A stretch of 64,000 bases of DNA from a virus (Duplodnaviria > Caudoviricetes): positions 213,584-277,583 of IMG/VR virus record IMGVR_UViG_3300031993_000004. One strand, 5' to 3'. A program made the position numbers and the translations under genes. The notes beneath the pieces were generated by a model. That model saw only the letters and a list, made by a program, of their open reading frames with translations. It did not search any database and was not told the origin of the DNA. Shown one piece after another: positions 25,998-64,000 of the stretch; within the stretch, counting starts at the first letter, position 1; each line of letters begins with the position of its first letter.

Positions 25998-26282
25998 TCA
26001 ATTCGTATATGTCAACTCAGAGACGTCACCGTCCCTGATGCATCTGATCGATATCTGGCACATCCCGTTGTTCGAATTATCGAACTGGGTGTACCATCCG
26101 ATCAGGATGGTGTCCATCGTCTCTGTATCTATAACAATGGAACGCGAATTCGTCCGGTAAACCCAGTTGCCCCGGACGAATTCTATGATCTCTAACGAGC
26201 TTCCGTAACGGAACTCGATTCTATTTCCCGGGACTGTGAATGCACACCCCAGGATATATAACGGAATATATTTATATTTCAT
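25998..26282 (-). CDS. Hypothetical protein
   Basis: ~94 aa, GAAAGGA RBS before ATG 26282. Confidence 0.55.
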   Translation of the reverse strand: MKYKYIPLYILGCAFTVPGNRIEFRYGSSLEIIEFVRGNWVYRTNSRSIVIDTETMDTILIGWYTQFDNSNNGMCQISIRCIRDGDVSELTYTN

Positions 26283-26327
26283 TTGTTTCATCCTTTCCTT
26301 TTCCTTTATTTTTTCTTTCAAAAAAGA

Positions 26328-26351
26328 ACGGCTGTGCGTGTGCGCAACCGT
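26328..26351 (-). terminator. Intrinsic terminator
   Basis: Minus strand ACGGTTG...CAGCCGT followed by TCTTTTTT. Confidence 0.6.
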
Positions 26352-26369: not shown

Positions 26370-26936
26370 TTAGAACCCACAGTTGACCGAGCCCTTAAGC
26401 CCGGCGGTACCACCTGCGTCGATCGTCGCAGGATCGATTCCATCGACGTCGATGTTGACGCCGCGCTTGGACTTGGACGTGGCAACGATAGTCATGGCCG
26501 TCAGGCCGCCGACCATGGCAAGACCGGCAACGGCAGTCCCGATCAAGACTCTACGTCCGACACGGGCGTTTTTGACAGCTTCCTGCTGGGTGATAGGGAG
26601 AGCTTCAAACTCAGCCTTTCTTGCCGCGCGCCGTTCCTTGCGGCTCGGCTTCAATGCCTTAGCGGCTTTGCGCTCTTCGCGAGCAGCCTTACGCTCAGCG
26701 CGCTTTTCAGCGCGTGCAGCCTTCTTGTCAGTTGCGGTTTCTGCAACGACGTCGTCGGCTTCTGCAGCGTCGTTCATCTCGGTGTTGAGATCTTCGAAGA
26801 CCTCAACTGCGTTCTCAGCAGTATCTGCTGCAGCTTCCACTGCGATTTCATCCGTCGTTGTGACGATCTCGGCTTCCTGCTGCACCTGCTGTGCCTTGGT
26901 GGTGGCTTTCTTGGTATTGGTAGTATTCTTTTTCAT
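26370..26936 (-). CDS. Putative early membrane-anchored Ala/Glu/Lys-rich protein
   Basis: ATG 26936 behind the conserved leader; acidic then basic helical blocks and one C-terminal TM (VLIGTAVAGLAMVGGLTAMTIVA); GC-rich biased codons. Confidence 0.75.
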   Translation of the reverse strand: MKKNTTNTKKATTKAQQVQQEAEIVTTTDEIAVEAAADTAENAVEVFEDLNTEMNDAAEADDVVAETATDKKAARAEKRAERKAAREERKAAKALKPSRKERRAARKAEFEALPITQQEAVKNARVGRRVLIGTAVAGLAMVGGLTAMTIVATSKSKRGVNIDVDGIDPATIDAGGTAGLKGSVNCGF

Positions 26937-27002
26937 AATGGTCCTCACTTTCTCCTCTTACGAGGTTGCGGCGACGCTAAGCTTCTGCGCCGCCTAAATC
27001 AA
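26931..27002 (-). promoter_or_regulatory. Conserved structured 5' leader, copy 1
   Basis: TTGATTTAGGCGGCGCagaagcttaGCGTCGCCgcaaCCTCgtaaGAGGagaaagtgaggaccattATGAAA; 43 nt identical to the copy at 63915-63986. Confidence 0.85.
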
Positions 27003-27055
27003 ATTTTATTATGAATATTGGAAGTTGTTTTTACACTTCTTCCTTTATTCATAAT

Positions 27056-27063
27056 AATAATAT
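27056..27063 (-). promoter_or_regulatory. Putative early promoter ATATTATT
   Basis: TATATATTATTATTATGAA shared with the 63866-63885 region; followed by a 5' hairpin. Confidence 0.7.
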
Positions 27064-27112
27064 ATATATGAAATATTAGATTTTCCGCAGAATTATTCCT
27101 TTCTGGATACAC

Positions 27113-39966: not shown

Positions 39967-39993
39967 CGTATACTATTTTTAATTTCTATATGT

Positions 39994-40001
39994 ATATTAT
40001 T
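39994..40001 (+). promoter_or_regulatory. Putative early promoter ATATTATT
   Basis: Followed by an AACAGG...CCTGTT hairpin and the GAAAGTGAGGACC RBS motif. Confidence 0.7.
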
Positions 40002-40060
40002 GGATTGAACAGGGAGAATCAACCTGTTTAAAATAAAATTTGAAAGTGAGGACCTTTACA

Positions 40061-40708
40061 ATGATCATCTCCGACAACCTGCTCGAGCAAATTGCTCAAC
40101 AAAACCTTGACATGCTATTCGCGAAAGGAACATTCAAGGTACGATTTGAACACATGGAAGAAAAGACATCGCCGAGTGGAAAACACCGGATGGGAAGAAT
40201 TCTGATGCGGATCCATAAGAATGACCTCCATGAAGAGCTTTTAAACGTTACACTTGAAATCAGAGTTATACCCAGCAGAAATCTGATGAATATCATCGGA
40301 TATGAGTTCTATTGCGAAGACGTAAACGACACATTCCTGGATTTTGTGAAATGTGTCAAAGAGATTCAAGATAAAATCAACAGCCTTTCCACATACTCGA
40401 CGATCTACTATGAGGGACCCGATTCGGTCGTTGTGAACTTCAATGAGATCGGGATCGAATCCCTCGTGGGAGATGAAAGCCGTGACCTTATCGTCAAACG
40501 AAATGGTGACATTTCATATATCACATTTGATGACAAGGGATTGGCAACCACAAAACCTATGACGGAAGAGGAATTCAAGGCAATGATCATTCAATATCTA
40601 TCTGATGACAACAAACTTGTCGACTTCTGTGGAGCTACTCAAATTATGTTTGTCGATTATGACAGATACGAAAATGCCGATATCAAAGATACTGATGATA
40701 TGGAATAA
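40061..40708 (+). CDS. Hypothetical early protein
   Basis: ATG 40061 after GTGAGG; stand-alone promoter-gene-terminator unit. Confidence 0.75.
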   Translation: MIISDNLLEQIAQQNLDMLFAKGTFKVRFEHMEEKTSPSGKHRMGRILMRIHKNDLHEELLNVTLEIRVIPSRNLMNIIGYEFYCEDVNDTFLDFVKCVKEIQDKINSLSTYSTIYYEGPDSVVVNFNEIGIESLVGDESRDLIVKRNGDISYITFDDKGLATTKPMTEEEFKAMIIQYLSDDNKLVDFCGATQIMFVDYDRYENADIKDTDDME

Positions 40709-62800: not shown

Positions 62801-63802
62801 TGATGACATCATGTCATAATAGTTTACCGCAGGAAATACTCCAGGAACCTCGCGAAGATACTTCACGACATAGATTCGTAGCATTGCATTCTTCGATTTG
62901 AAGTGTTCCAAATCTGTCATGGTTTTCTGTTGCAGATTTGGAATCTGCAAACCACCTTCTGTGAAGTAACCGAAGTTCGGAGCGATTGTAACTTCCTTAC
63001 GAACGATAGAATCAGAGATTTGGATGATGCAGTTGCGTCCAATCAGATCCGTTGGATCAATCTTGAGATCTTCATATGAATAGATACGAGTCGGCCGGAT
63101 ATCATTCGTCGGAATTGTTGTTTCCAGAACGCGAGATTCATCCAGTTTCATGATCATCAGTTCGACATCCGAAGAATATCTCCATCCAATCTTGAACCGG
63201 AATCCCTGTTCTGAGATGCCAACATACCAATCATCTGACATGAATCCGTTTGTGCAACAGATAATCGTGAATCCCAGAATCTTTGAGATTTCATCCGAGC
63301 AGAATCTGTCTGACGGCATGAAATATTTGCTTTCCGTTTCATAGAACGCATGAAGCTTCTGACGAACAAATTCATCACGTTCTCCGAAATGCATTTGCGC
63401 AAACGGAACCTCGATGATATAGTAATGGTCATACTTGTCATGAGACACATGACGTTTATCATCCTGCCAATATTTGGCGAGAACGCAGTGGGTATTGACC
63501 ATCATATTACCCATAGCATTTTGCAACGTTGTGCGATACGTCTCGATCAGTGATTGATCAATATCTGCAAATGTATAATTCGATGTCTGCATCAAATCGT
63601 ACAGTTGTTGGAATCCTGCATAGTTTCCGACAATGTTATATGGTTGCTCATCTAACAGAGAAGACATGGTCTCTGCCAGTTTTTCATATCTGGCATTGAT
63701 CGTTTTCCACTTCGTATCCAGATATCCACGAGTACCATTCCGTGATCCTGTCAGATACTTATGGTATTTATAAAACCAATCATGGTAGTTCATAGTACTC
63801 AT
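56819..63802 (-). CDS. Very large virion structural protein, probably baseplate or tail
   Basis: 2327 aa, late promoter, AAAGGAG RBS, C-terminal YEFWVNGR beta-rich module. Confidence 0.7.
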   Translation of the reverse strand: MSTMNYHDWFYKYHKYLTGSRNGTRGYLDTKWKTINARYEKLAETMSSLLDEQPYNIVGNYAGFQQLYDLMQTSNYTFADIDQSLIETYRTTLQNAMGNMMVNTHCVLAKYWQDDKRHVSHDKYDHYYIIEVPFAQMHFGERDEFVRQKLHAFYETESKYFMPSDRFCSDEISKILGFTIICCTNGFMSDDWYVGISEQGFRFKIGWRYSSDVELMIMKLDESRVLETTIPTNDIRPTRIYSYEDLKIDPTDLIGRNCIIQISDSIVRKEVTIAPNFGYFTEGGLQIPNLQQKTMTDLEHFKSKNAMLRIYVVKYLREVPGVFPAVNYYDMMSSKYVYTEGYNHVDNGDEDRIVLQDTRIDAKLPVCTPPISLSRVSQDDDRHRIITDCASVPKALQSVAYGVKMLGQRRNTKNPTFHGEQTLEGWYRVNVLALSRNIYNTLYLAYTKYANAAMLTTLISMDMVQYFRTTIESFLTLSNAEPNYQSIQTHPAEFDLLYGDNYDNFIKKICEPLQQAPFSTLGKISLPDYFPEMEVCVNRPISEQCFISMKYNTDEDPGCWVFDMPNIKHFHGIDNVFYVDEDLKGNELFKFMYLYTDTENPVEKNMYSMTDEQLIDFDAFTKEVDRHIGFVRYWDVSNRLMKLSEMFYHRHDETTELSILAKIMKKKLEGDIFLEYASDVNYELSNVTTDNIANYTETSMRAPFAINFLFYTLSLFYGHRNRMQTYLLHMLTNKKFYPRYSDLKLSDLHPDLKTEYINYSVISYSPTTTISPDRDISSLPDTSDLKTWAGIQFPLNPSTFVAYDPSGNIVRYPFVFNVYNSYNPFYMLTPTGIDEEYYLKFSSINSVMGTHPTTTYVDDAQIASLVSIFLAEVYDGISGLVTNYKTTWNPQSLIKSIKHTVEKRTDDIRKYVVGRGSALQLHATNAETIVDWFMNSPVESNPVYGKMVDLETLLNYAKGTLTVHEQGRDIIYTLIKTNQDVLTMIRKTYENTGFDRYAIRRLRRLYLQMKKLNQSMSLYEYEQWMNNLDVDTLTNITDYLSTNPNRLYPASAINAAVSKLLDCRDVAMSRISQIQPTLDSLLDNLQGYLDTLVAYCDDVMQNWIFDFFVMNKIPFSQQINSQPAYAEIQISSNAPQVAWDIDPVADKTYAMLAQVKYEYTGVSYQITEIIPTCENAFCDGTDTTVSVAIYGADGAQIQLFNDIPVSFTKIGVSSDIRNTITRYLNAQNIPIEVQNVHESFNTDGSDIIQTRHADLHYELLCGNRFTPLDHMSEYCAPAINELQGPIDKLYLSCEQMNRLSVVDEGNKPTKTMHFRACEVFHIDPVDDVITSIGGKYFEGQTVYAVTDDGLSLFPIIITKIDHSLQRGFIEAKVDLQHTKWFETHDDSVMHKYLTTNIECTVVDDNIRNFLDEFTDYMGPAYIIPSTDTVIPEELPGDPVFVSTNQEYVYARIAWMFSNDIPNRFNTSADVRHHFVYMGDGQIVTDDNFIMINMINHNFNSYTLPELYPVLRSEPDDHSVWAEERRVFAAEASKGVTHSMECVSRINYLWHILPLAETEQRRQEIRLEIEDMQLKYQYWADYTNRMDEYLKQLECASTWYNIRAYDDALVYINNGRAHLARTFQPYIMDVAYADKLNVLLYDWEKKEWVNPTVYSIETTTDDNVSIDPVTDANTDNVLTTMKIVFNDESYRSKRLLIYFVYETSDIFDDIPMNDMQCVVRFQPVLTVYRENIADVYDPYDHIRLRKHYDENEIYTVSKLEPLGDAFGQVTGFIFTRPSRSGYFTNGSPIRFGDMKVVTTGNEYTYEDFDIYIPDPMIDVTTPQTKTSTTYAVSTIHDADHMEPGHRVTLIAVNNDDFASFDKTASSVMFQGITTDDGIVIENAAVETVEDHTYTCTIVPDASHPIIGGVYHVTVTTTVTTYDEIPDWFYLDDVATEYRLIPERVALVAKSGVTLDATTKLKLCNQYARNTSHQVETDNSGHDDLYVYYYDTKHDIRYPVGDVLTNSHQKRLAIDLAENTDVESIRSNYLGICRYATQKIPQDGVIDLTGYISTPLTRDRYEFWVNGRYVSDPEQIIILSPTSFQLRNMTSLRNLDVVELVDDAAVNVINRVGPIYVDFDGNTYNSYFDVLKHRANIVKESVGYMFYQDARSDMDTYLYDKIRDSHNHDYETDIMSYVQTAEITSYNQLHNVPTINGVPLFNLSTADLGLQEIPTNRILKEFDKTWKFEGLNGVTPFKHMAMYVDTIGKSQTLHVKKVEDGFDVYATGLSDEYFTLYISTSRHGVIDDDSKTQQIIPMIAPGTHVIIDDRFEGMWLHSTIPATTPIKIQ

Positions 63803-63827
63803 ATGGAGCAGCTCCTTTCATTTAAAG

Positions 63828-63841
63828 TTACAGAACCGTTT
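63828..63841 (-). promoter_or_regulatory. Putative late promoter AAACG-N6-TAA
   Basis: Minus strand AAACG GTTCTG TAA. Confidence 0.75.
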
Positions 63842-63869
63842 GTCGTCAGTAATCATGATTTCTGTATAT

Positions 63870-63877
63870 ATATTATT
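63870..63877 (+). promoter_or_regulatory. Putative early promoter ATATTATT
   Basis: Followed by a TGAAGG...CCTTCA hairpin and the conserved leader. Confidence 0.7.
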
Positions 63878-63914
63878 ATTATGAAGGAAGATAATATCAA
63901 CCTTCAAAGAAAAA

Positions 63915-63986
63915 TTGATTTAGGCGGTGCGAAGATCTGGCGCCGCCGCAACCTCGTAAGAGGAGAAAGTGAGGACCATTATGAAA
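63915..63986 (+). promoter_or_regulatory. Conserved structured 5' leader, copy 2
   Basis: TTGATTTAGGCGGTGCgaagatctgGCGCCGCCgcaaCCTCgtaaGAGGagaaagtgaggaccattATGAAA. Confidence 0.85.
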
Positions 63987-64000
63987 CGTTACACAGAAGA
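63981..64000 (+). CDS. Start of an early gene (MKRYTE...), truncated by the window edge
   Basis: ATG at the same position in the leader as for 26370..26936. Confidence 0.6.

Follow-up and report, generated by a model that had tools for sequence, protein, structure and literature searches.

What does a virus gain by placing the same RNA leader ahead of unrelated genes? The question arises in the final 64 kb (the window, meaning the whole 64,000-nucleotide stretch that was analysed) of IMG/VR record IMGVR_UViG_3300031993_000004, which at 277,583 bp represents an uncultured rumen jumbo phage of 277 kb. An earlier note had described a duplicated leader here, at 26931-27070 on the minus strand (copy 1) and 63866-63986 on the plus strand (copy 2), with 43 nt identical, and this description was borne out. 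A repeat search paired arms 26931-27010 and 63907-63986 (80 nt, 86% complementary) and a second pair of arms, 27043-27068 and 63865-63890 (26 nt, 92%), the two copies share an uninterrupted identical run of 43 nt, and BLAST of copy 1 against its own genome recovered copy 2 at an E value of 5.8e-29.

The phage encodes a phiKZ-type RNA polymerase beta-like subunit (phrog_2962, E 1e-57; one subunit found), and Pfam and PHROG searches also assigned a family-B DNA polymerase and a gyrase A-like protein. The ends of the record overlap by about 240 bp (window 63757-64000 against genome 1-243, with one TTA unit of difference in the TTA run of the promoter), so the nominally linear record is a circularly closed assembly and the apparent copy at genome 112-230 is the copy 2 locus itself, whose gene crosses the record junction. 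Relatives of the phage are numerous in ruminant-gut metagenomes; the GenBank phage collection yielded no relative of the leader and none of the neighbouring 2327-aa protein. The genome contains 1799 GATC sites, where its base composition predicts about 1046.

The module runs in a fixed order: an early promoter, a hairpin (HP1) at the transcript start (+1), an AU-rich spacer, a second hairpin (HP2, with an 8-bp GC stem), 4-7 nt, a third hairpin (HP3), AGAAAGTGAGG and the start codon. The hairpins of the original two-hairpin description are all present, and what it had missed were the promoter class, the position of +1, the additional hairpin located there and the palindromic nature of the HP2 loops. 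In the window, the parts of the leader are as follows.

27051-27073, minus strand: copy 1 early promoter of AR9 type (virion RNA polymerase), with core ATATATTAT at 27057-27065 and N6 at 27051-27056
63860-63882, plus strand: copy 2 early promoter of AR9 type, with core at 63868-63876 and N6 at 63877-63882
27013-27050, minus strand: copy 1 HP1, a 5'-terminal hairpin from the predicted +1 G (27050), -9.4 kcal/mol, z -5.1
63883-63905, plus strand: copy 2 HP1 from the predicted +1 G (63883), as folded
26970-26994, minus strand: copy 1 HP2, 8-bp GC-rich stem, loop AG-AAGCTT-A with the palindrome at 26979-26984, -14 kcal/mol
63923-63947, plus strand: copy 2 HP2, 8-bp stem, loop GA-AGATCT-G with the palindrome at 63933-63938
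26954-26965, minus strand: copy 1 HP3, CCTC-GTAA-GAGG, abutting the Shine-Dalgarno (SD) tract, -4.5 kcal/mol, z -7
63952-63963, plus strand: copy 2 HP3, CCTC-GTAA-GAGG, as folded
26942-26953, minus strand: copy 1 extended purine SD tract, AGAAAGTGAGGA
63964-63975, plus strand: copy 2 SD tract, AGAAAGTGAGGA
39992-40063, plus strand: an 'empty-site' early leader with promoter, +1 G at 40007, HP1 and the common flanks, lacking HP2 and HP3

Copies 1 and 2 and a further copy at 55.8 kb all read ATATATTAT-TATTAT-G, and the motif ATATATTAT-N6-G occurs about 20 times in the genome. The early promoter consensus of phage AR9 is AAATATATATTAT-(6N)-G, in which the G is the experimentally mapped start site (PMC5312081), and the module promoters satisfy the AR9/phiKZ-type virion RNA polymerase consensus (AA)ATATATATTAT-(6N)-G drawn from the same study. 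By this likeness, transcription is predicted to start at the G of GAA. The two phages share the ATATATTAT-(6N)-G consensus (PMC5312081) and probably also split multisubunit RNA polymerase genes, of which one phiKZ-type beta-like subunit was found here. AR9 also has long untranslated regions with an unexplained conserved motif in the early ones (PMC5312081). The leaders themselves differ, in that AR9 has neither a hairpin at +1 nor an HP2/HP3 module: of the strict promoters, 10 of 13 in this genome and 10 of 19 from relatives are followed by a stable hairpin starting at most 2 nt from +1, compared with 0 of 30 in AR9. Because it is common in these phages and absent from AR9, HP1 is an RNA feature of the clade rather than a requirement of the promoter type. 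The promoter and HP1 of copy 2 are identical over 50 nt to those of the 55.8-kb copy. We rejected a leader peptide, since the sole upstream ATG includes the predicted +1 G and its frame is closed in copy 1 and open in copy 2.

HP1 can itself carry other sequence. Four relatives have a second portable block nested within it (L048:1448, L065:1980 and L082:1460, both on the minus strand, and L136:10902), a hairpin whose stems vary and covary around an invariant loop, CCAGGTGATAGCGG, that displays AGGTGAT, complementary to the 3' end of 16S rRNA; this block is not present in the genome studied here. At L076:560-830, about 200 nt are inserted into the HP1 loop while the outer GAATA/TATTC stem is intact, indicating that the leaders tolerate large nested insertions. 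On the plus strand from genome position 85709 onward, a 7-bp hairpin at +1 comes after a perfect early promoter and leads into over 100 nt of GC-rich sequence that has no ribosome-binding site close by, possibly a stand-alone early RNA.

Searching the whole genome and its relatives, as the earlier note had proposed, produced a third full copy, a decayed copy and seven copies in relatives. The third full copy lies at genome 55792-55912 on the minus strand, and all three full copies of this genome fold alike. With a covariance model built from them, two related IMG/VR genomes proved to have full modules. L065 and L136 emerged from pattern scans, L074 and L076 were reached through homologues of the copy-2 protein, and L279 came from the DNA polymerase locus of the sister genome. 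Full modules outside this genome are therefore those in G002, G006, L065, L074, L076, L136 and L279, all related rumen phage contigs, which brings the total to 10 copies, spread over four genomic sites. Viral contigs were also searched with peptide patterns from the copy-1 and copy-2 proteins and with a promoter-plus-SD pattern, and neither approach returned anything. The decayed copy, near genome 66256-66278 ahead of a small gene (region about 66180-66305; L046:81-208), retains an AGATCT loop, and we rejected it as a true member because a C-C mismatch or a shifted register disturbs its stem and only CGTAAG is left of its HP3. Its decay implies that at least one gene can do without the module. 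The early gene at 39992-40063, noted earlier for having the flanks and lacking the hairpins, is confirmed as such, with a partial covariance match of 20 bits.

Are these copies held together by anything more than recent common origin? Across nine aligned copies, all 131 of 131 pair cells are standard pairs, double changes affecting both sides occur at 8 of 15 pairs, and controls with slid partners were paired in only 25-53% of cells. The stem differences between copies 1 and 2 are, as first described, exchanges of G-C for G-U; the two G-U states would be wobble pairs only on the transcribed sense strand, which favours a constraint at the RNA level. Pairing rather than sequence is conserved in all three hairpins, and the existence of just two HP2 stem versions and three loop versions means that few independent events underlie the pattern in HP2. 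A recent neutral duplication would fit the 86% identity over 80 nt between the window copies, but diverged copies retain every pair through double changes while their spacers and loops differ, and simple duplication without covariation, the outcome that the earlier note had named as fatal to its own proposal, is contradicted by the 8 of 15 doubly changed pairs. We regard neutral duplication as very improbable.

Nor does the module belong to an Rfam family. The earlier note had not recognised it as one, Rfam 15 gave 0 matches in the window at the gathering threshold, and loose E values added only chance-level matches. The best of the sub-threshold matches, to cow-rumen-4 (RF02948), scored 21.6 bits against a threshold of 48.5, and membership was rejected on that score. 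The match covers the promoter and HP1 (window 63830-63896), not HP2 or HP3, and the cow-rumen-4 metagenomic motif may derive from promoter-leader regions of such rumen phages.

HP3 combines a free choice of sequence with a strict choice of place. It has 4-5 bp and at least seven stem and loop versions among the copies, with loops GTAA, TATC, ACA, TTCA, ATCA, ACAAA and GTCAA, and it stands directly against an SD tract whose first nine bases (AGAAAGTGA) are identical across the aligned copies. Among leaders of the clade, hairpins ending exactly at an RGAAAG tract number 21 at distance 0, against a background of about 6. These observations bear on the idea, central to the earlier reading, that CCTC pairs with either of two GAGG elements, the second being the ribosome-binding site. 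Such an exchange could occur in copies 1 and 2, but the 5' arms of the other copies (GCTCC, CCCGC, GCCGC, GCCCC and GTCCC) cannot pair with the SD, and the alternative pairing is missing from every HP3 version except CCTC. An SD-sequestering switch, whether thermometer or riboswitch platform, was rejected for this reason, and we give it as little chance as neutral duplication. What survives of the original interpretation is a discrete, insertable, cis-acting leader with structure-preserving substitutions ahead of several early genes; the CCTC switch does not.

Other regulatory candidates also failed. An intrinsic terminator or attenuator was rejected, since no T-run follows the hairpins, HP3 leads into AGAAAG and a terminator scan of the leader was empty, and a riboswitch was rejected because the loops vary freely. 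The guanidine-II (mini-ykkC) riboswitch resembles the module in having two small tandem GC-rich hairpins just 5' of the SD and a mechanism that includes loop-loop kissing. It requires ACGR tetraloops on both hairpins, however, whereas the HP2 loop of the phage module has 9 nt and the loop of HP3 changes from copy to copy, and with no ACGR tetraloops and no Rfam match it too was rejected.

The genes behind the leader and the way in which it travels are a further line of evidence. The window contains the following cargo features.

26370-26936, minus strand: copy 1 cargo, a 188-aa gene with a charged N-terminal part and a C-terminal hydrophobic helix, no Pfam or PHROG match
26320-26351 (approximate), minus strand: terminator-like imperfect hairpin and T-run ending the inserted cassette, read from the sequence; a consensus terminator scan did not call it
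25998-26291, minus strand: resident small gene, whose homologue in relatives comes immediately after the promoter (by translation and blastn against G002)
63981-64000, plus strand: start of the copy 2 cargo, a 272-aa gene that continues at genome 225-1043, no database match

The 10 copies precede at least six unrelated gene families, and the six cargo families have no Pfam or PHROG assignment. At the DNA polymerase site, relatives have only promoter, HP1, SD and small gene, lacking HP2 and HP3, whereas here the leader, the 188-aa gene and the terminator-like hairpin are inserted upstream of the resident gene; elsewhere the gene behind the module changes from genome to genome, with one site holding different cargo in G000 and G002. 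Where the gene stays, the module may stay with it, as in homologues of the copy-2 protein at 71% and 30% identity, which retain it. The blocks also move separately. Copy 2 is a mosaic whose left 50 nt match the 55.8-kb copy and whose right 43 nt match copy 1, and in the sister genome copies 1 and 2 both have HP3 as GCCCC-ACAAA-GGGGC in place of CCTC-GTAA-GAGG and keep their distinct HP2 loops, a shared replacement that amounts to concerted change. These sequence comparisons show a cassette whose blocks re-assort, whose copies are homogenised within genomes and which can be inserted as a unit.

In this respect it is much like the promoter-early stem-loop (PeSL) of T4-type phages, a composite of about 100 bp that likewise joins early promoter, stem-loop, SD and ATG (PMC2839356, PMC4122927). 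PeSLs are also repeated in variable regions before genes that lack database matches, and their copies act as homology patches for gene insertion, deletion and replacement, a role to which the evidence here is comparative only. The PeSL promoter is sigma-70-like, however, and the one here is of the AR9 virion RNA polymerase type. In addition, the PeSL stem-loop, a terminator or attenuator, has no set place around the promoter, unlike the three hairpins described here, which lie downstream of +1 in fixed order, none with a U-tract.

We propose that the module serves a clade of rumen jumbo phages with AR9/phiKZ-like split RNA polymerases as a portable cassette for early-gene expression, a reading to which we assign a probability of roughly 0.6. 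At the DNA level the cassette would start with a virion RNA polymerase early promoter, and its RNA would be built from separable blocks, with HP1 at the extreme 5' end, the AU-rich spacer, HP2 as a GC clamp with a self-complementary loop, and HP3 set against the SD tract. The hairpins would protect early mRNA from decay that depends on the 5' end, given a host RNase set that we assume from the strong SD usage, and would keep the ribosome-binding site exposed regardless of the gene downstream. With its mRNA protected and its ribosome-binding site exposed, any captured gene could be strongly expressed right after infection. Stabilisers of this general design are familiar from Gram-positive bacteria and their phages: the aprE and ermC leaders, the cryIIIA STAB-SD and the SP82 polypurine stabiliser each have a strong, purine-rich ribosome-binding sequence close to a stem-loop that lies at or near the 5' end, as here. 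Those are single-gene elements, whereas the phage leader is a multi-block cassette common to many genes and has an extra hairpin with a palindromic loop.

That extra hairpin counts against the cassette proposal as stated, since stability and insulation alone leave its palindromic loop unexplained. In all 10 copies the HP2 loop has 9 nt with a 6-nt palindrome (AAGCTT, AGATCT or TGATCA) at loop positions 3-8, a new observation, and the three copies within this genome have three different palindromes. The loops had previously been said to diverge; their sequences do differ, but each keeps a palindrome at the same positions. The alignment model did not contain the palindrome pairs, and these nevertheless covary in 3 of 3 cases with no exception. 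Among hairpins with the same stems taken from unrelated viral contigs as controls, 0 of 22 and 2 of 80 had such a palindrome (2 of 102 in total); a broader scan for any palindrome-bearing loop was too noisy, being dominated by perfect-palindrome terminators. The same purine always occupies loop positions 1 and 9 (A..A or G..G); at position 2, five versions have A or G and L076 has U. Diversity among the 10 copies comprises six stem-loop combinations, with two stem versions and three loop types; G-CGG-G is invariant in the stem, and the sequence after the stem reads GCAA, GCGA, GCATC or TTAAACC, with GC following directly in 9 of 10 copies. Two simple explanations of the loop were rejected: restriction-site avoidance, as the hexamers occur at 0.87-1.09 of expectation genome-wide, and pairing with the 3' tail of 16S rRNA, which TGATCA fits partly and AAGCTT not at all. 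In L049 and L073 (G004:145032-145085, minus strand), a homologue of the gene behind the 55.8-kb copy has CCTC-GAAA-GAGG beside the SD and, in place of HP2, a perfect 14-nt palindrome, GAGTCTTAAGACTC.

One possibility, which we put forward tentatively, is that HP2 is a kissing-loop homodimerisation element through which two copies of the same early mRNA pair by way of the palindrome. The kissing dimer would form a stacked helix of about 22 bp and so might alter mRNA fate, by concentration-dependent shut-off, RNase III processing or clustering. The 10 of 10 palindromes against 2 of 102 in controls, their covariation outside the model, the matching purines at positions 1 and 9 and the use of three palindromes by the three copies of one genome all speak for such pairing. 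The hexamer of each HP2 is not repeated elsewhere in the same leader and thus has no intramolecular partner. Predicted dimer gains of -10 to -13 kcal/mol, compared with about -6 for shuffled loops, also favour it, although these are extended-duplex energy estimates and suggestive only. Set against this, just 2 of the 6 palindrome pairs are G-C, the estimate for a 6-mer duplex comes to only about -4 to -5 kcal/mol, there are effectively three loop types on two stem types to judge from, and one copy has U at loop position 2.

We know of no dimerising bacterial or phage mRNA leader, and the closest likeness is to the HIV-1 dimerisation initiation site (DIS), to which HP2 is unrelated by descent. 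The DIS has a 9-nt apical loop with a 6-nt self-complementary core and flanking unpaired purines (PMC7357161), on a GC-rich stem of about 7-8 bp like that of HP2, and the two nucleotides 5' and one nucleotide 3' of the phage palindrome agree with its description (PMC7357161). The phage palindromes are nonetheless A/U-rich (2 G-C of 6), and the DIS acts in a packaged RNA genome while HP2, a putative dimerisation element, lies in the mRNA leader of a DNA phage. Early mRNAs might homodimerise through a DIS-like HP2, with AAGCUU, AGAUCU and UGAUCA serving as incompatible 'addresses' that separate messages; we consider this possible and still doubtful.

Rather than another RNA, a protein could read the leader. 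T4 RegA and coat-protein operators are precedents for translational shut-off, and HP2, HP3 or both could be an operator for a phage-encoded RNA-binding protein that shuts off or times early-gene translation. The hairpins do adjoin the ribosome-binding site of several early genes, and the invariant G-CGG-G of the HP2 stem and the GC after it (9 of 10) would suit sequence-specific contacts. This proposal is unlikely in our estimation, however, given that HP3 stems and loops are almost freely variable, three HP2 loop types would be unusual for a protein operator, HP2 is missing from many early leaders, and no candidate binding protein was found.

It is also conceivable that HP2 works as DNA, as an inverted-repeat site for recombination or protein binding whose central palindrome sets the exchange partners, which would explain the mobility of the cassettes. 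They clearly recombine, and copies in one genome that differ in their central hexamer would be less prone to deletions between them. For PeSLs, one crossover was mapped inside the loop of a stem-loop, and its authors speculated on a DNA-binding recombination factor (PMC2839356). Four features of HP2 make this improbable: the G-T states of copies 1 and 2 correspond to wobble pairs on the sense strand only, the palindrome is half a base off the symmetry axis of the stem in all copies, the hexamers are common in the genome and not avoided, and position and orientation are fixed relative to +1 and the SD tract.

We retain the portable expression cassette as the preferred reading, with the HP2 loop probably contributing something beyond the protection and insulation that the hairpins would provide, either an RNA-RNA (kissing) contact or a role in factor recognition. 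In jumbo phages that carry their own RNA polymerases, early genes evolve fast, many of them probably serving host take-over or counter-defence, and how such genes are acquired and function immediately is little understood. The cassette looks like a ready-made 'plug' that would give any captured gene a promoter, protection of its mRNA and ribosome loading, and it recombines among sites and genomes. Its sequence also offers a way to find early accessory genes in uncultured relatives, and the combination of a hairpin at +1 with an insulator hairpin abutting the SD could be tried in expression design. If mRNAs do dimerise through the HP2 loop, a bacterial virus would join the very short list of natural RNA homodimers, and regulated mRNA-mRNA pairing would extend to a DNA phage.
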